Assembly (NCBI GenBank): GCA_900316585.1
Contig: ONDM01000006.1
Span: forward strand, 307,578-371,577
Origin: an uncultured Prevotellaceae bacterium
GTDB lineage: Bacteria > Bacteroidota > Bacteroidia > Bacteroidales > Bacteroidaceae
DNA: 64,000 nucleotides
Reading direction: 5' to 3'
Shown: one piece after another, positions 23,480 through 31,711 of the stretch
Layout: the number at the start of each line of letters is the position of its first letter
How positions within the stretch are numbered: position 1 is the first letter of the stretch
The notes under the pieces: generated by a model
What the model was told of the DNA's origin: nothing
What the model saw: the letters and a program-made list of their open reading frames with translations, nothing else
Database searches by the model: none
Position numbers and translations under genes: made by a program

Positions 23480-24484
23480 ATGAAGGTTATTAAAGCTATT
23501 TTTACTCTATTCTTCTTGTTATTATGTTTGAGTAGTAAAGCGCAGACTCAAATCAAATTGAAATTTGCAACGCTTTCAGAGGCACAGTCTTTTATATCTG
23601 CAGATGATCATTATACAAAGGGCTTAAGTCCTTTTGATATTGATTCTAGAGTGGGTAAGGTAAATTCTACAGTTCAGGAACTGAAAGAACTTCAGAAGGC
23701 AGAGTGTAGAGAATGGTTCCAATCCGAAATTGATACCATCTACAAATCTTTCAAAATAATAGAGCAGCGTTTAGTAGAAGGAGGCTATAATATCCCACTT
23801 CCCACGGAAGTTGTTATGATAAAGACGACTATGCGTGAAGAGGGTAATGCGGGAGCTTATACTCGTGAGAACCAAATTTATGTGGGATCTGGTGTTGTTG
23901 GTCTCAGAAAAATGAGAGATGGCACAGAACTCCCTATACCATCAGCAGAATCCCTTTGTTCTTTGATGGCTCATGAACTTTTTCATGTTCTGACTCGAAA
24001 TAATTTGAATTTTAAGTCTGCTATGTATCGTATTATAGGGTTTACTCGTCTTGAGAAAGAGATACAGTTCCCAGATGATGTTCTGACTTTGCGTATTTCT
24101 AATCCGGATGTAAGTTGCTATGATAGCTATGCCAATATCACGGTAAATGGTGTTAAGCAGAATTGCACAATGATTAATGTGGCAAACAAGGCTTATGAGG
24201 GAGGTTCTTTTTTCCGGTACCTAAAAGTTGGTTTTATTCCATTGGATAATAATTTCACTCCTATAGTGAAGGATGGTAAAACGGTCATTTATGATTTGGA
24301 TGATGCTACTGATTTCTATAACCTTGTTGGCCGGAATACAGGATATGTGATAAACCCTGAAGAGTGTCTTGCTGATAATTTCTCTATTGCGGTGAACGGG
24401 TTTCAACCTAGTCCACGTCGTCAGGAACTTCCCAATCCGGAAATCGTAGAAAAGATTCGTGAAGCCTTGAAAATCAGATATTAG
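23480..24484 (+). CDS. secreted hypothetical protein with an HExxH motif (possible zinc metallopeptidase)
   Basis: Signal peptide …CLSSKAQ and a single MAHELFHVLTRNN motif. I recognised no family. Confidence 0.45.
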   Translation: MKVIKAIFTLFFLLLCLSSKAQTQIKLKFATLSEAQSFISADDHYTKGLSPFDIDSRVGKVNSTVQELKELQKAECREWFQSEIDTIYKSFKIIEQRLVEGGYNIPLPTEVVMIKTTMREEGNAGAYTRENQIYVGSGVVGLRKMRDGTELPIPSAESLCSLMAHELFHVLTRNNLNFKSAMYRIIGFTRLEKEIQFPDDVLTLRISNPDVSCYDSYANITVNGVKQNCTMINVANKAYEGGSFFRYLKVGFIPLDNNFTPIVKDGKTVIYDLDDATDFYNLVGRNTGYVINPEECLADNFSIAVNGFQPSPRRQELPNPEIVEKIREALKIRY

Positions 24485-24492
24485 CAGACTTC

Positions 24493-25368
24493 CTACATGG
24501 TATCTCTGAATTCTGAAGGATTCACATTGACCATTTTCTTGAATAGGGCACTAAAATACTCTGGATTCTTGAACTTCAGTTGATAACTTATTTCTTTAAT
24601 TGGAAGTTCAGAGCTTCGTAATAATTCCTTTGCTCTGTGCAATTTCAAACTGATGTAATACTTGGCAGGAGATAGCCCTACATATTTTTTGAAGACTCTT
24701 CTGAAGGTTGTATAGCTTAGATTTAAGCGTTTTGCCACATCCGGCATATTTAAATCATCTTCTATATGATCTTGCATGTAGGTTCTTGCGCTTCTGATAA
24801 CTTCTGGAGTTTCTTTCTCTCCAGACATGGAATAGTTTTGGTTAATCATAAACAGCAATCCCAATAAGTGGTTCACTATTCCAGCGAGTAATTGTTGGAA
24901 AAACGCATCTTGACGGGTAGCTACGTCAAGTGCCTGTTTATATAAATCTACAATGGTACTGCTCTTACCTATTTTATATACTGGGTGATCAGGAGAAAAG
25001 AATCCAGCCTGCACGCGTGCATCGATGTTCACACCTCTAAATCCTATCCAGTATTCATCCCATCCTATTTCTTTCAATGGGTAATAAGTATGCCATTTTC
25101 CGGGAAATAGCAGGAACATGTTTCCTTCTTCTATCTGGAATTCCTGTCCTTGGTCATTTTTTAACAATCCTCTGCCTTTTGTTATATATAGAAGTTGATA
25201 TTCCTGTAAAAGCCGTCCTTTTTGTGGATTGAACATATGTTCTTGGTTATGATAGCTAGGAGGGTAGTTCTCACCGGGTTTGATGCTTTGGTATCCTACT
25301 GAACAGACTACTAATCCCCAAAGATAATCACGTTCATTTTCTGTAATATATTTAATAGGTTTGTGCAT
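24493..25368 (-). CDS. rhaR: AraC-family rhamnose-responsive transcriptional regulator
   Basis: N-terminal cupin-like sugar-binding half and C-terminal dual HTH (…LSPAKYYISLKLHRAKELL…). The gene is divergent from the rhamnose catabolic genes. Confidence 0.8.
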   Translation of the reverse strand: MHKPIKYITENERDYLWGLVVCSVGYQSIKPGENYPPSYHNQEHMFNPQKGRLLQEYQLLYITKGRGLLKNDQGQEFQIEEGNMFLLFPGKWHTYYPLKEIGWDEYWIGFRGVNIDARVQAGFFSPDHPVYKIGKSSTIVDLYKQALDVATRQDAFFQQLLAGIVNHLLGLLFMINQNYSMSGEKETPEVIRSARTYMQDHIEDDLNMPDVAKRLNLSYTTFRRVFKKYVGLSPAKYYISLKLHRAKELLRSSELPIKEISYQLKFKNPEYFSALFKKMVNVNPSEFRDTM

Positions 25369-25553: not shown

Positions 25554-25611
25554 AGAGAATTAGTAACTATATACATTATCTTTGCAATGTAATCTAAAAT
25601 TGAATAGTACT

Positions 25612-27075
25612 ATGAATTTCTTTGCAGTTGATTTAGGTGCAACTTCTGGCAGAACTTTATTGGGCTCCTTGACTGAGAATGGTTTGGAACAGCGTGAGTT
25701 AACACGTTTTGCCAATACTATAATTCAGGTAAACGGTCATTATTTCTGGGATATCTATGCACTTTACAATGAAATTATTAAAGGTTTGAAAAAAGTAGCT
25801 GAAGAGGGAATAACCATTCAGTCTATTGGTGTCGATACTTGGGGCGTTGATTTTGTCTGTGTCGGTAAGGATGGACAACTTTTGGGTAATCCATATAGCT
25901 ACCGGGACCCACATACTTTTGGAATCATGGAAGAGTATTTTAAATTGGTTCCAAAAGAAAAAGTATATGAAAAGACTGGTATTCAATTCATGAATTTCAA
26001 TAGCTTATTCCAATTGGCAGCATTGCGAAAAGAAAAAAGCTCCATATTGGAAGCAGCTGACAAAATACTTTTCGTTCCAGATTGTCTAAGCTATATGTTG
26101 ACGGGGAAGATGGTAACGGAATATACCATAGCTTCAACCAGTCAAATCCTGAATCCTGTAACAAAGGAATTGGACAAGCATTTATTAGATGCTATTCATG
26201 TTCGCCAAGATCAGTTTGCTCCTATTGTATTCCCAGGAACTCAGGTTGGCGTCTTGACACCAGAAATTCAGCAGATAACTGGATTGGGAGCTGTTCCTGT
26301 CATTGCTGTGGCTGGACACGATACAGCTTCTGCTGTAGCATCTGTTCCTGCAATGAATGCTAATTTTGCTTATCTTAGCTCTGGAACTTGGAGCCTGATG
26401 GGAATAGAGGCTAACGAACCTATTATTAATGAAAAGAGTTATGAGGCTAATTTCACTAATGAGGGTGGAGTAGAGGGAACTACCCGTTTCCTAAAGAATA
26501 TATGTGGCATGTGGCTGTTGGAACGTTGCCGAAAAGAATGGAAAGAGAACTATGATTATGGTTCATTGATTGAAGCTGCTATGAAAGTTCCTGCATTCCA
26601 GAGTCTGATTAGCCCAGATTCTCCATGTTTTGCCAATCCAGTCAGTATGATTGAAGCCATTCAGAATTATTGTAGGGTAACAGGTCAATATGTTCCTAAG
26701 ACTTATGGGGAAATCACTCGTTGTATTTTTGATAGTCTGGCACTACGTTATCGTCAGGTCATGAATCTTCTTCGTGATATGGCAGGATTTCCTATTGAAA
26801 GATTGCACATTATTGGTGGTGGCTCTCGTAATCAGCAGTTGAACCAGTTTACTTCAAATGCTGTGAGTATGCCTGTTACAACAGGCCCAGTGGAAGGTAC
26901 AGCGATTGGTAACATCATGCTCCAAGCCAAGGCTGCAGGTCTAGTAAATACAATTGGTGAAATGCGCCAGCTTATCGCTAATTCTATTGAGACCCAAGAA
27001 TATTTGCCTCAGGATGCAGAGCTTTGGGACAAAGGATATGAGAAATATTTGAGTGTTTATAGAGAAGATATTTAA
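25612..27075 (+). CDS. rhaB: rhamnulokinase (Bacteroides rhaK)
   Basis: FGGY-kinase N-terminus FAVDLGATSGR. The tracked TTG start at 25582 lies inside the -7 box, so the ATG at 25612 is used. Confidence 0.9.
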   Translation: MNFFAVDLGATSGRTLLGSLTENGLEQRELTRFANTIIQVNGHYFWDIYALYNEIIKGLKKVAEEGITIQSIGVDTWGVDFVCVGKDGQLLGNPYSYRDPHTFGIMEEYFKLVPKEKVYEKTGIQFMNFNSLFQLAALRKEKSSILEAADKILFVPDCLSYMLTGKMVTEYTIASTSQILNPVTKELDKHLLDAIHVRQDQFAPIVFPGTQVGVLTPEIQQITGLGAVPVIAVAGHDTASAVASVPAMNANFAYLSSGTWSLMGIEANEPIINEKSYEANFTNEGGVEGTTRFLKNICGMWLLERCRKEWKENYDYGSLIEAAMKVPAFQSLISPDSPCFANPVSMIEAIQNYCRVTGQYVPKTYGEITRCIFDSLALRYRQVMNLLRDMAGFPIERLHIIGGGSRNQQLNQFTSNAVSMPVTTGPVEGTAIGNIMLQAKAAGLVNTIGEMRQLIANSIETQEYLPQDAELWDKGYEKYLSVYREDI

Positions 27076-27102
27076 TTAGAAAAACAATTTAATAATAAAA
27101 TT

Positions 27103-28356
27103 ATGAAAGAAGAATTAGTTAAAAAAGCGTATGAAGTAGCAAAAGAGCGTTTTGCTGAAATTGGTGTAGATACAGAAAAGGTATTGGCTCAGTTGCAAGA
27201 TTTCCATTTGTCAATGCATTGCTGGCAGGCAGATGATGTGAAGGGTTTTGAAGTCCAAGCAGGTTCACTCAGTGGTGGTATCCAAAGTACAGGTGATTTC
27301 CCAGGGGCAGCTCGGAATATTGATGAACTCCGTGCTGATGTATTGAAGGCAAAAACTTTGATTCCTGGTAATCATCGTCTGAATTTACATGAAATCTATG
27401 GTGATTTTAAAGGTAAAGTTGTGGATCGTGATGAAGTAACCATAGATTATTTCCAGAGTTGGATTGATTGGGGTAAGGAGACAAATACCAAGTTGGATTT
27501 CAATTCAACATCATTCTCTCATCCTAAGAGTGGTAATCTCACTTTGTCTAACCCTGATAAAGGCATTCGTGATTTCTGGATTGAGCATACCAAGCGTTGT
27601 CGTGATATCGCAAATGCAATGGGTGAGGCTCAGAATGATCCTTGTATCATGAACCTTTGGGTACATGATGGCTGCAAGGACCAAAGTGTAAATCACTATT
27701 TGTATCGTAGTTTGCTGAAGGAATCATTGGATGAGATCTTTGCTAAGAAACAACCATGTATGAAGGATACTATAGAAGGTAAGGTTTTTGGTATCGGTTT
27801 GGAAAGCTTCACTGTAGGTTCACATGATTTCTATACTGCTTATGCAGCTTCCCACAATATGATGCAGACTATTGATACAGGTCACTATCATCCATCAGAA
27901 ATGCCTGGTGATAAAGTTAGTGCTTTATTACAGTTCCTTCCAGAACTGATGCTGCATGTTAGTCGTCCTGTACGTTGGGATTCTGACCATGTAACCATCA
28001 TGGATGATCCAACTCAGGATTTATTCTCTGAAATTGTTCGTGCTGGTGCTTTGAATCGTGTACATTATGGTTTGGACTTCTTCGATGGTTCTATCAATCG
28101 TATTGGTGCTTATGTTATAGGTTCCCGTTCAGCACAGAAATGTATGCTTCGTGCACTTCTGGAGCCAAAGGAGCGTATTTCTAAGTTGGAATTGGCTGGT
28201 GAAGGTTATAAAGTACTGGGCCTCATAGAGGAACAGAAGGGTATGCCATGGCAAGCTGTTTATGATGAGTTCTGCGTACGCAATAATGTTCCTGTAGGTG
28301 AGGACTATATGAAGGAAATTGATGCATATGTGGCAGAAGTAATTTCTAAGCGTTAA
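27103..28356 (+). CDS. rhaA: L-rhamnose isomerase (Bacteroides rhaI)
   Basis: Length of 417 aa and typical RhaA motifs (HCWQ…, DTGHYHPSE). Its position in the rha operon also supports the call. Confidence 0.9.
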   Translation: MKEELVKKAYEVAKERFAEIGVDTEKVLAQLQDFHLSMHCWQADDVKGFEVQAGSLSGGIQSTGDFPGAARNIDELRADVLKAKTLIPGNHRLNLHEIYGDFKGKVVDRDEVTIDYFQSWIDWGKETNTKLDFNSTSFSHPKSGNLTLSNPDKGIRDFWIEHTKRCRDIANAMGEAQNDPCIMNLWVHDGCKDQSVNHYLYRSLLKESLDEIFAKKQPCMKDTIEGKVFGIGLESFTVGSHDFYTAYAASHNMMQTIDTGHYHPSEMPGDKVSALLQFLPELMLHVSRPVRWDSDHVTIMDDPTQDLFSEIVRAGALNRVHYGLDFFDGSINRIGAYVIGSRSAQKCMLRALLEPKERISKLELAGEGYKVLGLIEEQKGMPWQAVYDEFCVRNNVPVGEDYMKEIDAYVAEVISKR

Positions 28357-28358
28357 TT

Positions 28359-29387
28359 ATGATAATCATTGGTTTGCTGATTATAGCGATAGGCGCATTC
28401 TTCCAAAGCAGTTGTTATGTGCCTATCAATAAAATCAAAGCTTGGAGCTGGGAGAGCTATTGGATTGTACAGGGTGTTTTTGCCTGGCTGATTTTTCCTT
28501 TCCTGGGAGCTTTGTTGGCAGTTCCGGAAGGTCACAGTCTGACTGAACTTTTCAGTAATGCTGATTCGTTCAGTCTTTGGATGACCATCTTATTTGGTGT
28601 GCTTTGGGGAGTTGGAGGCTTGACCTTTGGCCTTTCCATGCGTTATCTAGGTGTAGCATTGGGCCAATCTATCGCTTTAGGAACATGTGCTGGCTTGGGA
28701 ACTATTATGGGTCCTGTTTTGCTTAACATCTTTTTCCCTGAGTTGAATGCTTTGTCTTCATTAACATTTGCAGTTATTTTGGGTGTGGTAGTTACTTTAT
28801 TGGGAATTGCCATTATTGGAATAGCTGGTTCTATGAAGAGTGCATCTCTTTCTGAGGAAGAGAAGAAAGCTGCTGTTAAGGATTTTAATTTCCCTAAGGG
28901 CTTGGCTATTGCATTATTGGCAGGTTTCATGAGTGGCTGTTTCAATGTCGGTCTGGAATTTGGAAAGGAAATTAATTTTCCTGAAACGGATGCTATGTTC
29001 AAAACTTTACCTGCTACCTTTCTAGTTACTTTGGGCGGTTTCTTGACTAACGCTATCTACTGTTTTTATCAAAACTCAAAGAACAAAACCTGGAGCGATT
29101 ATAAAATGGGTAGTGTGTGGGGAAATAATTTAGTTTTTTGCTGCTTAGCAGGTGCTCTTTGGTATAGCCAATTTTTTGGATTGTCATTGGGTAAAGGATT
29201 CCTCACAGAATCTCCTACTTTGATGACTTTGGCATTCTGTATATTACAAGCTCTGAATGTTGTTTTCAGCAATGTTTGGGGTATTATCTTGAAAGAGTGG
29301 AAAGGCTGTAGCAAGAAAACTATTGTGGTTCTTTTGATTGGATTGGCAATACTTATCATTTCAACCTTCCTTCCTCAATTGATATAA
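28359..29387 (+). CDS. rhaT: L-rhamnose/H+ symporter (Bacteroides rhaP)
   Basis: 342-aa protein with 10 TM segments. The start lies 2 nt after the rhaA stop. Confidence 0.85.
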   Translation: MIIIGLLIIAIGAFFQSSCYVPINKIKAWSWESYWIVQGVFAWLIFPFLGALLAVPEGHSLTELFSNADSFSLWMTILFGVLWGVGGLTFGLSMRYLGVALGQSIALGTCAGLGTIMGPVLLNIFFPELNALSSLTFAVILGVVVTLLGIAIIGIAGSMKSASLSEEEKKAAVKDFNFPKGLAIALLAGFMSGCFNVGLEFGKEINFPETDAMFKTLPATFLVTLGGFLTNAIYCFYQNSKNKTWSDYKMGSVWGNNLVFCCLAGALWYSQFFGLSLGKGFLTESPTLMTLAFCILQALNVVFSNVWGIILKEWKGCSKKTIVVLLIGLAILIISTFLPQLI

Positions 29388-29431
29388 TTTGATTATTTAT
29401 TGTCGTCAAGACTGTTTAATAGCATAAAACT

Positions 29432-30262
29432 ATGAAATCAATACTAGATGGACGTCCAGCTTTGAAAATTGAGATCGACAAGGTGGCTGAAGTCGCAGGC
29501 TATCTTTGGCAGAAGGGATGGGCTGAGCGTAATGGTGGTAATATCACAGTAAACATATCAGAATATGTAGATGATGAGATTAAATCACTTCCTGCTATTT
29601 CTGAGGTAAAACAGATAGGTGTGACATTACCTAATTTGAGAGGATGCTATTTCTATTGTAAAGGCACTGGTAAACGTATGCGTGATTTGGCACGTTGGCC
29701 AATGGAGAATGGTTCTGTAATTCGTATCTTGGATGATTGTGCCAGTTATGTGATTATTGCAGATAATCCAGTGCTGCCAACTTCTGAGCTTCCTTCTCAC
29801 TTATCTTTGCATGATTATCTGATTGGTTCAGGCACAGATTATAAGGCATCTTTGCACACTCATCCAATAGAACTGGTTGCTATGAGCCATAGCCCGCGTT
29901 TCCTGAATGCAAAAGAAATCACACGTGTGCTTTGGTCTATGATACCTGAAACTTTGGCTTTTGCTCCACTTGCATTAGGTATAGTCCCTTATGAGATGCC
30001 ATCTTCTGTGAAGTTGGCAGATGCTACATTGGAGCAGGTAAAGAACAATTATGACTGTGTACTTTGGGAGAAGCATGGTGTTGTAGCTGTTGGTCCAGAC
30101 ATTATGCAAGCGTTTGACGTAGTTGACGTTCTCAATAAGAGTGCTAATATTTATATGTGTGCGAAGAACATGGGATTTGAACCGGAAGGAATGACCGATG
30201 AGGCCATGAAGGAAATACAGGATGTTTTCTGTCTTCCAAAGGTTCGTCCTATCAAGAAATAG
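29432..30262 (+). CDS. rhaD: rhamnulose-1-phosphate aldolase (class II aldolase)
   Basis: Class II aldolase/adducin-type motifs (ERNGGNITV, SLHTHP). It is the last gene of the rha operon. Confidence 0.85.
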   Translation: MKSILDGRPALKIEIDKVAEVAGYLWQKGWAERNGGNITVNISEYVDDEIKSLPAISEVKQIGVTLPNLRGCYFYCKGTGKRMRDLARWPMENGSVIRILDDCASYVIIADNPVLPTSELPSHLSLHDYLIGSGTDYKASLHTHPIELVAMSHSPRFLNAKEITRVLWSMIPETLAFAPLALGIVPYEMPSSVKLADATLEQVKNNYDCVLWEKHGVVAVGPDIMQAFDVVDVLNKSANIYMCAKNMGFEPEGMTDEAMKEIQDVFCLPKVRPIKK

Positions 30263-30300
30263 ATATAATAAAAGGGGTTCCATTAGGAGCCCCTTTCTTT

Positions 30301-31530
30301 TTATTCTATAATTCTTGGTTTCCCTTTTAAAGGCTTAAATACTTTTATAGAAACTTTACTACCATTCTCCCTTTTACAGATAAAAAGGTAATTGATTCCA
30401 GCTACAACTTGGGTTCCTACGGAGAGAGGTATAAGTTTCTCTTTGTATCCTTTGGTGGCTTCATTAAATACGTTTAAATCTTCTTTTGTTACAGTACGTT
30501 GACGAGTGAAGGCACCTACCAAGTCCGATTGTTCATCAATAAGTTTCTTAACTTCTTTGAATATTCCTACTTCTTCGGTTAAATAACCTGTATTTTTCTC
30601 ACGATATAATACACCACGGAACATCCCCCCACTATTAAAAGGCATGGTGTAGTTACCTTCTTTGTCTACTGCAATTAACCCTCCATTGCCTTCTTCAGAA
30701 TTCAATTCTTGGAAGATTATTTCATTGGCAGCTTCATCAATTGGTTGTTTCATAAACTTTACGCGAAAATTGAGATTGCTGGATACTGCATGTCTGATAA
30801 AATATTCCCCATGTCCAGTACAGCTAATAGCGCAACCAGCATTGTCTGCATAGGTACCTGAACCAATAATAGGTGCATCACCAATTCTTCCATACTTTTT
30901 CCCTAGCATACCACCTGTACTTGTACCAGCTGTTAAATTGCCATCTTTATCTAATACTACGCAACCTACTGTTCCATTTTTTTTACTTTCTTCCTTAAAT
31001 TTTTCTACCCATTGCATGGTTTTTGGAGTGGCAAAATATAGATTATCATTAACCGTTTCAAGCCCATTTTCAGCAGCGAACTGATCGGCTCCATCACCAG
31101 AAAGCATGACATGTGGTGTCAGCTTTTTTACTGCATAGGCTGCATTGATAGGATGCTTTATATGCTTGACTCCAGCAACAGCTCCTGCACTTAAATCTTT
31201 ACCTTCCATGATGCAGGCATCCAGCTCAAATTGACCAGCAGCACTTACTGTTGCACCAATGCCTGAATTGAACAATGGGTTGCTTTCAAAGTAATTAATG
31301 ACAGCTAAAACCACATCAGCACCTTTTCCTGTAAGTTGCATTTGCCTTTCCCCAATCTGAAGAGCTGAATCTAATGCTGCATAATACATGTCTCTTTGTT
31401 CAGGATGATCTTGCAATGCAGTCATTACTCCTGCACCCCCGTGAACTAATATAACATATTCTTTCTCTTGTGCAGGAACGGGCAGTAGGAATGCACCCAT
31501 CATTAATAATGTAAATAATATTTTCTTCAT
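30301..31530 (-). CDS. exported isoaspartyl peptidase / plant-type L-asparaginase (Ntn hydrolase) fused to a C-terminal stefin-like cystatin domain
   Basis: Signal peptide. Ntn motifs are present: HGGAG, NGTVGCVVLD (autoprocessing Thr) and GTSTGG. The last 83 aa (nt 30304-30552) carry QVVAG (nt 30397-30411) and KVFKPLKG. Confidence 0.8.
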   Translation of the reverse strand: MKKILFTLLMMGAFLLPVPAQEKEYVILVHGGAGVMTALQDHPEQRDMYYAALDSALQIGERQMQLTGKGADVVLAVINYFESNPLFNSGIGATVSAAGQFELDACIMEGKDLSAGAVAGVKHIKHPINAAYAVKKLTPHVMLSGDGADQFAAENGLETVNDNLYFATPKTMQWVEKFKEESKKNGTVGCVVLDKDGNLTAGTSTGGMLGKKYGRIGDAPIIGSGTYADNAGCAISCTGHGEYFIRHAVSSNLNFRVKFMKQPIDEAANEIIFQELNSEEGNGGLIAVDKEGNYTMPFNSGGMFRGVLYREKNTGYLTEEVGIFKEVKKLIDEQSDLVGAFTRQRTVTKEDLNVFNEATKGYKEKLIPLSVGTQVVAGINYLFICKRENGSKVSIKVFKPLKGKPRIIE

Positions 31531-31619: not shown

Positions 31620-31711
31620 TGTATTAATAAACTTAGTACGTGAAGATTACTAATCTTAGTCGACCAAGATTAGTAATCTTAGTGATGTAAGATTAGTAAT
31701 CTTCAGTACAT
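31620..31711. repeat. four tandem 23-bp units, three containing a perfect 15-bp palindrome AAGATTA-S-TAATCTT
   Basis: Palindromes lie at 31643-31657 (centre C), 31666-31680 and 31689-31703 (centre G), spaced exactly 23 bp apart. A degenerate upstream unit lies at 31620-31642. The array sits in the 350-bp divergent intergenic region. Confidence 0.85.

Follow-up and report, generated by a model that had tools for sequence, protein, structure and literature searches.

The DNA analysed here is a stretch of 64,000 nucleotides (hereafter, the window) from an uncultured Prevotellaceae bacterium (GenBank assembly GCA_900316585.1, contig ONDM01000006.1, forward-strand positions 307,578 to 371,577). 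On its minus strand lies a gene for an isoaspartyl peptidase/L-asparaginase precursor of 409 amino acids (aa), which continues beyond the enzyme into an 83-aa extension (Table 1). A first-pass annotation made from the sequence alone had proposed that this extension is a cystatin module of the stefin type, joined C-terminally to an exported asparaginase of the N-terminal nucleophile (Ntn) hydrolase type. The open reading frame (ORF), the length of the tail, the position of its QVVAG motif and the HGGAG, NGTVGCV and GTSTGG motifs of the core are exactly as given there, and the proposed fusion is borne out by a profile match and a predicted cystatin fold. Contigs in no fewer than 189 blocks of public assemblies carry the exact protein in identical synteny, so the 409-aa fusion is not an assembly artefact, and MBQ2508075.1 (NCBI, from a 'Bacteroidaceae bacterium' metagenome-assembled genome, MAG), likewise 409 aa long, belongs with it in one 90%-identity cluster. 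Public annotation of the exact protein reads isoaspartyl peptidase/L-asparaginase and nothing more.

The precursor begins with a predicted Sec signal peptide, MKKILFTLLMMGAFLLPVPA, which has a basic n-region, a hydrophobic core and V-P-A ahead of Gln21; a model of the full-length protein places a helix at residues 2-15, followed by a low-confidence stretch. The core is a complete Asparaginase_2 domain, which Pfam PF01112 matches over residues 26-313 with a score of 302 bits (cut-off 27; E=5.2e-90). HGGAG occupies residues 30-34, NGTVGCV 185-191 and GTSTGG 202-207; among 45 homologs, the glycine-rich loops HGGAG and GTSTGG, NGTVG and the substrate-binding R215 and D218 are almost invariant. The nearest solved structure is the Escherichia coli EcAIII precursor (2zak, E=6e-67). 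Because the separately deposited beta chains of EcAIII and its relatives (1jn9_B, 2zal_B and others) begin at the residue that aligns with T187, this threonine is the predicted autoprocessing nucleophile, and the stefin module would consequently ride on the beta chain of the mature enzyme. The protein misses the cut-off of NCBIfam NF007589, the equivalog model for the E. coli IaaA beta-aspartyl-peptidase (255 versus 567 bits), and for this reason we leave the substrate of the core, whether isoaspartyl dipeptides, asparagine or glycosylasparagine, unassigned. One asparaginase homolog, P0009 (392 aa), is unusually long because a segment of about 60 residues is duplicated in tandem inside it (DLTAGAVAGLKTVKNPINAAYAVKTKTPHVMLAGEGADRFAKSQGLEIVDNMYFATPKTLKWIED repeated) and not because of a tail; this duplication may be an assembly artefact.

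The extension is set off from the core by a short linker. Tail-less orthologues stop inside this region, near residue 331, at ...GIFEELKNLK, and model confidence by the predicted local distance difference test (pLDDT) is low here, being below 50 for tail residues 1-12 in a model of the tail and 56 for residues 331-340 in the full-length model. Searches with the single sequence gave sub-threshold cystatin matches: against Pfam Cystatin (PF00031, gathering score 22.2) the tail alone reached 19.0 bits (E=0.0017) and the full protein 15.5, an NCBIfam scan of the tail returned no match, and the best PDB sequence match of the tail alone, by phmmer, was stefin A at E=0.02-0.03. The decision came with a family profile built from six sequences, namely the tail, three stand-alone homologs of 91-132 aa (two of the three with an N-terminal lipoprotein signal) and the asparaginase fusions P0005 and P0006. 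All 24 of the PDB matches that this profile obtained at E<1 are cystatins, the best being the secreted type-1 cystatin of Fasciola (6i1m, E=2.9e-8), with human stefin A at about 1e-6. Thus, the profile match anticipated by the first-pass annotation failed in Pfam, where the tail stays below threshold, and held with the family profile against the PDB. Since the six-frame translation of the window holds no other Q-V-V-A-G and just one other match to Q.V.G, and since both the tail and the profile match stefins in the PDB, the likeness exceeds chance.

An AlphaFold2 (AF2) model of the tail has cystatin topology, in which a helix lies across a five-stranded antiparallel beta-sheet, with a mean pLDDT of 83 and a predicted template modelling score (pTM) of 0.70. 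In tail numbering, residues 1-12 are disordered and are followed by a beta strand at 19-20, a helix at 23-32, strands at 41-49, 52-60 and 66-74, and a last beta strand at 80-81, which gives the order beta1-alpha-beta2-beta3-beta4-beta5 with only two residues each in beta1 and beta5. The full-length model keeps this fold after the low-confidence linker (helix 349-358; strands 367-375, 379-386 and 392-399). When the predicted structure was compared with the PDB by Foldseek, ranks 1-18 were all stefins or cystatins, with template modelling (TM) scores of 0.60-0.71, the ten highest-ranked having a probability of 1.00; the match to stefin B, in the form seen in its complex with papain, had a TM score of 0.71 and a root-mean-square deviation of 2.5 Å. 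Profile, predicted fold and motifs together indicate that the tail module is a true, though trimmed, stefin-type cystatin domain.

These results also bear on a more trivial account, in which the tail is a C-terminal sorting domain (CTD) of the type IX secretion system (T9SS), an unrelated extension with a chance QVVAG, or an assembly or read-through artefact. A C-terminal extension of about 80 aa on exported enzymes in Bacteroidota and Fibrobacter, the phyla of the T9SS CTD, is what a sorting domain would look like, and the Pfam Cystatin score is indeed sub-threshold. However, T9SS CTDs are all-beta, unlike the helix-on-sheet fold predicted for the tail, which matches cystatins only, and apart from that Cystatin score neither Por_Secre_tail nor any other family in Pfam or NCBIfam matched at E up to 10. 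Furthermore, the module is also found in N-terminal, tandem and stand-alone positions and in signal-less proteins of Aeromonas and Flavobacterium, the identical protein recurs across the assembly blocks counted above, and its tail has a ratio of nonsynonymous to synonymous substitution (dN/dS) of 0.06. We regard this account as effectively refuted. A PepSY/YpmB-like identity of the tail was rejected along with the T9SS CTD and the chance motif, using Pfam, NCBIfam, Foldseek and the six-frame motif count.

All three segments with which cystatins contact their proteases are present in the module: L-V-G339, Q374VVAG378 and P400-L-K-G403. The first lies within L337-V338-G339-A-F, the counterpart of the G-G-L-S trunk of stefin A in the alignment, and we take L337-V338-G339 to correspond to the L-V-G of human cystatin C and to G4 of stefin A. 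From this glycine to the start of the helix there are nine residues in both the module and stefin A. QVVAG lies between predicted strands 367-375 and 379-386 and is invariant in all fusion lineages and homologs. In the second hairpin, where stefins have L-P and type-2 cystatins P-W, the module keeps the Leu and has Lys in place of the Pro of stefin A (S-L-P-G), and HMMER pairs kvfkplkgk of the tail with KVFKSLPGQ of stefin A; this hairpin is two residues shorter than the family consensus P-L-P-G-Q-G, and the same two residues are absent from about 35% of family domains. The alignment with stefin A that had been made by eye, including its N-terminal glycine, is therefore upheld by HMMER and by a glycine that is 100% conserved across the family.

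In a set of 267 domains taken from the 150 best representatives of the family, conservation is 100% for the N-terminal Gly and for the Q, V and G of QxVxG, 94-95% for N-Y and 90% for the Leu of the second hairpin, figures that are biased towards the motifs because the sequences were selected by profile or pattern. In 178 aligned domains, the Gly (again 100%) is preceded by L, M or I and then by V, C or A. The most constrained positions thus appear to be those of the protease-contact wedge, as expected of an active inhibitor. A further near-invariant residue is a Cys in beta3; it is the single Cys of the module, so that no disulfide is possible within it, and it has no partner in the window protein. 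A type-1 cystatin is a single domain of about 100 aa with neither signal peptide nor disulfides, whereas the module is about 73 aa long, lies C-terminal in a 409-aa protein and is predicted to be exported via its carrier. In sequence, then, it resembles a stefin, but its organisation departs from that of a classical one.

Table 1. Features of the asparaginase-stefin gene and of its surroundings in the window (nucleotide positions within the window; residue numbers refer to the 409-aa precursor).
Feature	Position	Strand	Basis
Whole gene, 409-aa precursor (signal peptide, Asparaginase_2 core, linker, stefin module) and stop	30301..31530	-	ORF list
Predicted Sec signal peptide, residues 1-20, MKKILFTLLMMGAFLLPVPA / QEKE	31471..31530	-	Sequence reading; cleavage site inferred
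Ntn-hydrolase core (isoaspartyl peptidase/L-asparaginase, Asparaginase_2), residues 21-326	30553..31470	-	Pfam PF01112
Thr187 codon, predicted autoprocessing nucleophile, residue 1 of mature beta chain	30970..30972	-	EcAIII beta-chain alignment
83-aa extension, residues 327-409	30304..30552	-	
Linker, residues 327-336 (VKKLIDEQSD)	30523..30552	-	Orthologue ends and low pLDDT
Minimal stefin-type (MEROPS I25-like) cystatin module, residues 337-409, about 73 aa	30304..30522	-	PDB profile, AF2, Foldseek, dN/dS
N-terminal trunk L337-V338-G339, first contact segment of the cystatin wedge	30514..30522	-	Family conservation
First hairpin loop Q374-V-V-A-G378 (QxVxG)	30397..30411	-	Codons CAA GTT GTA GCT GGA
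Second hairpin loop P400-L401-K402-G403	30322..30333	-	Alignment of tail and homologs, HMMER against stefin A
GC-rich hairpin, 11-bp stem, probable bidirectional terminator	30271..30296		Terminator-like site; T-run also in minus-strand reading
Complete rhamnose-utilisation cluster (FGGY kinase, RhaA isomerase, RhaT symporter, class II aldolase)	25582..30262	+	
AraC-type regulator	24493..25368	-	
Three 15-bp palindromes	31643..31703		
334-aa ORF	23480..24484	+	
Tricorn-like/S41 protease with PD40 repeats, 1096 aa	43230..46520	-	
M1 aminopeptidase, 866 aa	11432..14032	-	

The tail is maintained by selection, and the fusion is rare. In a comparison with the orthologous fusion gene in the MAG UBA4293 (locus L001), the module has a dN/dS of 0.06 and the core one of 0.03, ratios that are approximate only because dS, at about 1-1.6, is near saturation; they indicate purifying selection on the tail. 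When the window protein is set against P0006, the most distant fusion, the core is 84% identical and the tail 38%, with the junction, the C-terminal end, L-x-G, TQVVAG-NY, the Cys and P-L-x-G all kept. The tail is spanned by just three 90%-identity clusters out of the 120 best relatives of the full protein, and typical orthologues are tail-less proteins of 326-335 aa. The tail is accordingly not an integral part of the asparaginase subfamily, in keeping with its earlier description as an added module. Among 80 species-representative genomes with the module, the asparaginase fusion occurs in L001 only, and tblastn detected no asparaginase gene at the 79 other stefin loci.

In a neighbour-joining tree of the core alone, without bootstrap, the four fusion proteins group together as a single clade whose sister is a tail-less orthologue. 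Because the fusions form one clade and the usual orthologues have about 330 aa, the data fit a single gain of the module in the ancestor of one small Bacteroidales clade. A search with a junction-spanning profile for distant asparaginase-stefin fusions retrieved only P0142, a fragment of the same fusion, and also missed P0004-P0006, so distant fusions may exist. At the one orthologue locus examined (P0007, L082), no stand-alone stefin gene lies beside the tail-less asparaginase gene, and with no locus that pairs the two we name no donor for the module.

The module belongs to a large bacterial family. An exhaustive hidden Markov model (HMM) search yielded 1,582 representative clusters at E<=1e-3, and 447 at E<=1e-10, from a library that carries no taxonomy; a word-indexed search with the tail alone found three homologs, an underestimate against the HMM count. 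A genome scan located 310 loci in bacterial species genomes, of which the best 80 are mostly from gut, rumen or horse-faeces Bacteroidales, Alistipes and Fibrobacter and include signal-less stefin forms of 90-96 aa in Aeromonas and Flavobacterium. Together with a catalogue published in 2009 (PMC2784779), these clusters and loci show that the first-pass annotation overstated its case in calling stefins overwhelmingly eukaryotic. Of the top 150 representatives, 73 are stand-alone, 36 are tandem arrays with up to 14 repeats, 16 carry the module C-terminal to another domain and 7 carry it N-terminal to one.

Partners are diverse. Scanning 55 fused proteins, we found Flavodoxin_4 (12), GH43 (4), DUF3828 (3), rhodanese (2) and an IseA-type endopeptidase inhibitor (2), and further GDSL/SGNH esterase, alpha/beta-hydrolase, thioredoxin-like/AhpC, SLH, dockerin and chagasin domains, the last being another inhibitor of C1 peptidases. 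Precomputed Pfam annotation shows no domain on the stand-alone homologs and only PF01112 on the asparaginase fusions; this blank would explain why the asparaginase-stefin architecture has gone unnoticed. The commonest partner, the Flavodoxin_4-type domain, is found in predicted lipoproteins of Fibrobacter, Bacteroidaceae and Alistipes with the stefin C-terminal (loci L004, L005, L007, L010, L012, L015-L019, L021, L023, L033, L044 and L058; host ORFs of about 266-301 aa). Some very long proteins contain 8-14 tandem stefin-like repeats (P0138, 1337 aa with 14 matched stretches; P0145, 1194 aa with 13; P0162, P0183, P0217, P0220 and P0262), and these bacterial or metagenomic 'multicystatins' far exceed potato multicystatin in size.

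A pattern of C-terminal placement on many unrelated exported enzymes is typical of accessory or targeting domains, and it raises the alternative that a genuine cystatin fold has been co-opted for a non-inhibitory role, such as stabilisation, oligomerisation, protein or ligand binding, or retention in the envelope. Co-option would accommodate the trimmed helix, the shortened second hairpin, the short last strand and the near-invariant beta3 Cys that lacks a partner, and it would follow the prevailing trend in vertebrate cystatin families, which is loss of inhibition (Kordis & Turk, PMC2784779). Yet a mere scaffold would not be expected to hold the wedge residues (G and QxVxG, 100%) as its most conserved positions. 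Moreover, fusion to chagasin argues for an inhibitor function (PMC2784779), and stand-alone and cytoplasmic stefin forms exist. We therefore consider co-option unlikely.

Within the window, the asparaginase-stefin gene is monocistronic. It converges, across the probable terminator, with a rhamnose-utilisation operon whose rhamnulose-1-phosphate-aldolase-like gene is the 3' neighbour, and it is divergent from an aminotransferase/OPT-transporter pair. In the P0006 lineage (L083), no rha genes separate the fusion gene from the AraC-family gene that comes immediately after it, which suggests that the rhamnose operon was inserted or deleted at this spot. Between the asparaginase-stefin and aminotransferase genes lie three perfect 15-bp palindromes, AAGATTA[C/G]TAATCTT, at 23-bp spacing. 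This palindrome is unique to the site in the 64 kb, and none of 100 shuffles reached three matches; the orthologous locus of UBA4293 (L001, 2893-2930) has two exact copies at the same spacing despite near-saturated synonymous sites, and the palindrome also occurs at L081 (2828-2888). The array is probably an operator for a dimeric regulator. Elsewhere in the window, a 334-aa ORF between the gene for a P-type cation ATPase and that for the AraC regulator has no Pfam family at E<=1e-5.

The surroundings offer no evident partner for an inhibitor. Searches of the window turned up neither a papain-like (C1), C10 or C13 peptidase nor another stefin module, and the 80 stefin loci share no recurring neighbour family. 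The 'Peptidase_C26' matches were rejected as cysteine peptidases, being GMP-synthase amidotransferase domains. The window does encode two large exported-type peptidases, a Tricorn-like/S41 protease and an M1 aminopeptidase; neither is a cysteine peptidase, which makes both implausible as stefin targets.

This context matters for a further possibility, in which the module inhibits a cysteine peptidase (papain-like, C10, C11 or C25) of the organism itself or of a bacterial competitor, and so regulates periplasmic or surface proteolysis. Gut Bacteroidales encode many cysteine peptidases, the carrier is predicted to be periplasmic, and stand-alone homologs are lipoproteins, all of which would suit such a role. 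Cysteine peptidases are also cited as the major bacterial peptidase type in the rumen (PMC6908469). Against this, no peptidase gene is linked to the module at the 80 stefin loci or in the window, and inhibition of C10, C11 or C25 peptidases by cystatins is not known. Known bacterial protease/inhibitor pairs, for example streptopain-like enzymes with staphostatin-like inhibitors, are usually adjacent, which counts against a bacterial target as well. As for the C10 and C13 peptidases that the first-pass annotation had listed among conceivable targets, nothing supports them, and reading the sequence of the tail reveals no legumain-site motif (S-N-D type) after the helix. A bacterial target therefore seems to us decidedly improbable.

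Taken as a whole, we read the protein as an exported asparaginase-type carrier with a stefin wedge that most likely inhibits foreign C1A peptidases, a reading to which we assign a probability of roughly 0.6. In such a scheme, the precursor would be exported by the Sec pathway to the periplasm and would cleave itself between G186 and T187, leaving a beta chain of residues 187-409 with the module on a flexible linker of about 10-15 residues, and would assemble into an (alpha-beta)2 enzyme. The tethered wedge would then occlude the active-site cleft of C1A peptidases, giving reversible, tight-binding, substrate-blocking inhibition, with no effect expected on the Thr-nucleophile enzyme that carries it. 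The targets would be foreign cathepsin-like peptidases of the host, protozoa or dietary plants, and the asparaginase would serve mainly as an exported carrier. We favour foreign targets and a carrier role because no peptidase gene is linked and because the module is found on many unrelated exported proteins; the asparaginase fusion being one of many such fusions, no functional link to asparaginase chemistry is expected.

Neighbours on the N-terminal side of a cystatin domain are tolerated, as illustrated by the multicystatin 4lzi, which is among both the PDB profile matches and the Foldseek matches. Likewise, kininogens hold inhibitory cystatin domains inside multidomain proteins. Host cathepsins were proposed as targets of bacterial stefins by Kordis & Turk in 2009 (PMC2784779), and bacteria-digesting rumen ciliates express C01A cathepsins highly (PMC6925433), so that an anti-predation role, though speculative, is conceivable.

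Several considerations weigh against inhibition of foreign peptidases. The cystatin assignment itself falls below threshold in Pfam, and the best Foldseek E-value is a modest 2.2e-3, as may be expected for so small a domain (about 70 residues). The module is trimmed relative to eukaryotic stefins, with a helix about 7 residues shorter, a shorter second hairpin without Pro and a very short last strand, and this trimming could weaken or alter binding. The conservation of the wedge carries the selection bias described above. The short linker to a dimeric enzyme of about 35 kDa is a weak point, as exposure of the wedge is assumed in our model, and the periplasm is not an obvious meeting place with host or protozoal peptidases. 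Finally, a literature search, which was not exhaustive, found no experimental characterisation of any bacterial stefin or cystatin.

More broadly, the stefin family may have expanded in the anaerobes of herbivore and human guts (Bacteroidales, Alistipes and Fibrobacter) and been grafted onto abundant exported enzymes and lipoproteins, where it would form an envelope shield against cathepsin-type digestive peptidases from the host, from ciliates that feed on bacteria or from ingested plants. We put this idea forward tentatively and consider it doubtful as it stands. If it is true, the asparaginase-stefin fusion is one case of a general anti-digestion or anti-predation strategy, comparable to the action of periplasmic ecotin against neutrophil elastase.

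If the module does inhibit, the protein would be an unusual enzyme-inhibitor chimera and among the first experimentally tractable members of the bacterial stefins, a class predicted in 2009. The wider pattern may matter more, as gut and rumen anaerobes hold hundreds of stefin modules, most of them invisible to Pfam and many of them fused to exported enzymes. The size and promiscuity of the family suggest that commensals commonly deploy inhibitors of papain-like peptidases, which could bear on how active host cathepsins are in the gut lumen, on predation by protozoa and the cycling of nitrogen in the rumen, and on efforts to find compact cathepsin inhibitors of natural origin. There is also a point for annotation, in that the fusion proteins are labelled only 'isoaspartyl peptidase/L-asparaginase'.

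Our findings can be set beside several known systems. With its full complement of catalytic and autoprocessing motifs, the core is a full member of the class-2 (plant-type) Ntn asparaginases typified by EcAIII/IaaA (2zak, 1jn9) and human ASRGL1 (4o0c), to which the window protein adds a signal peptide and the C-terminal stefin module. The module shares its predicted fold and topology, the N-terminal Gly after hydrophobic residues, QVVAG, an L-x-G in the second hairpin and the lack of a disulfide with the eukaryotic stefins (MEROPS I25A; human stefins A and B, Fasciola hepatica 6i1m, Dictyostelium cystatin A2 8gqq), and its TQVVAG-NY and KVFK-L-G strings match theirs fully or almost fully; apart from the trimmed helix, second hairpin and last strand, it differs in its length (about 73 versus about 98 aa), in its sequence (21-32% identity) and in being the C-terminal domain of an exported enzyme rather than a free protein. 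Multidomain cystatins such as potato multicystatin (4lzi) and the kininogens inhibit despite their N-terminal neighbours, but they are inhibitor-only proteins, unlike the enzyme fusion in the window. Ecotin and bacterial chagasin/ICP, which are periplasmic inhibitors of exogenous host proteases, are likewise inhibitor-only. A further comparison is with the bacterial stefins catalogued in silico in 2009, including the Bacteroides fragilis stefin-chagasin fusion CAH07101 (Kordis & Turk, PMC2784779). These come from the same phylum, are patchily distributed, keep the motifs and provide a precedent for fusion, and one stefin-chagasin architecture was recovered in our survey too. However, that catalogue covered about 17 genera and contained no asparaginase fusion, whereas the family described here comprises 1,582 clusters and 310 loci, and the partner in B. 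fragilis is a second inhibitor while that in the window is an unrelated Thr-nucleophile hydrolase. The asparaginase-stefin fusion is rare and previously undescribed, in a class of domains whose existence, and presence in Bacteroidetes, were already known.

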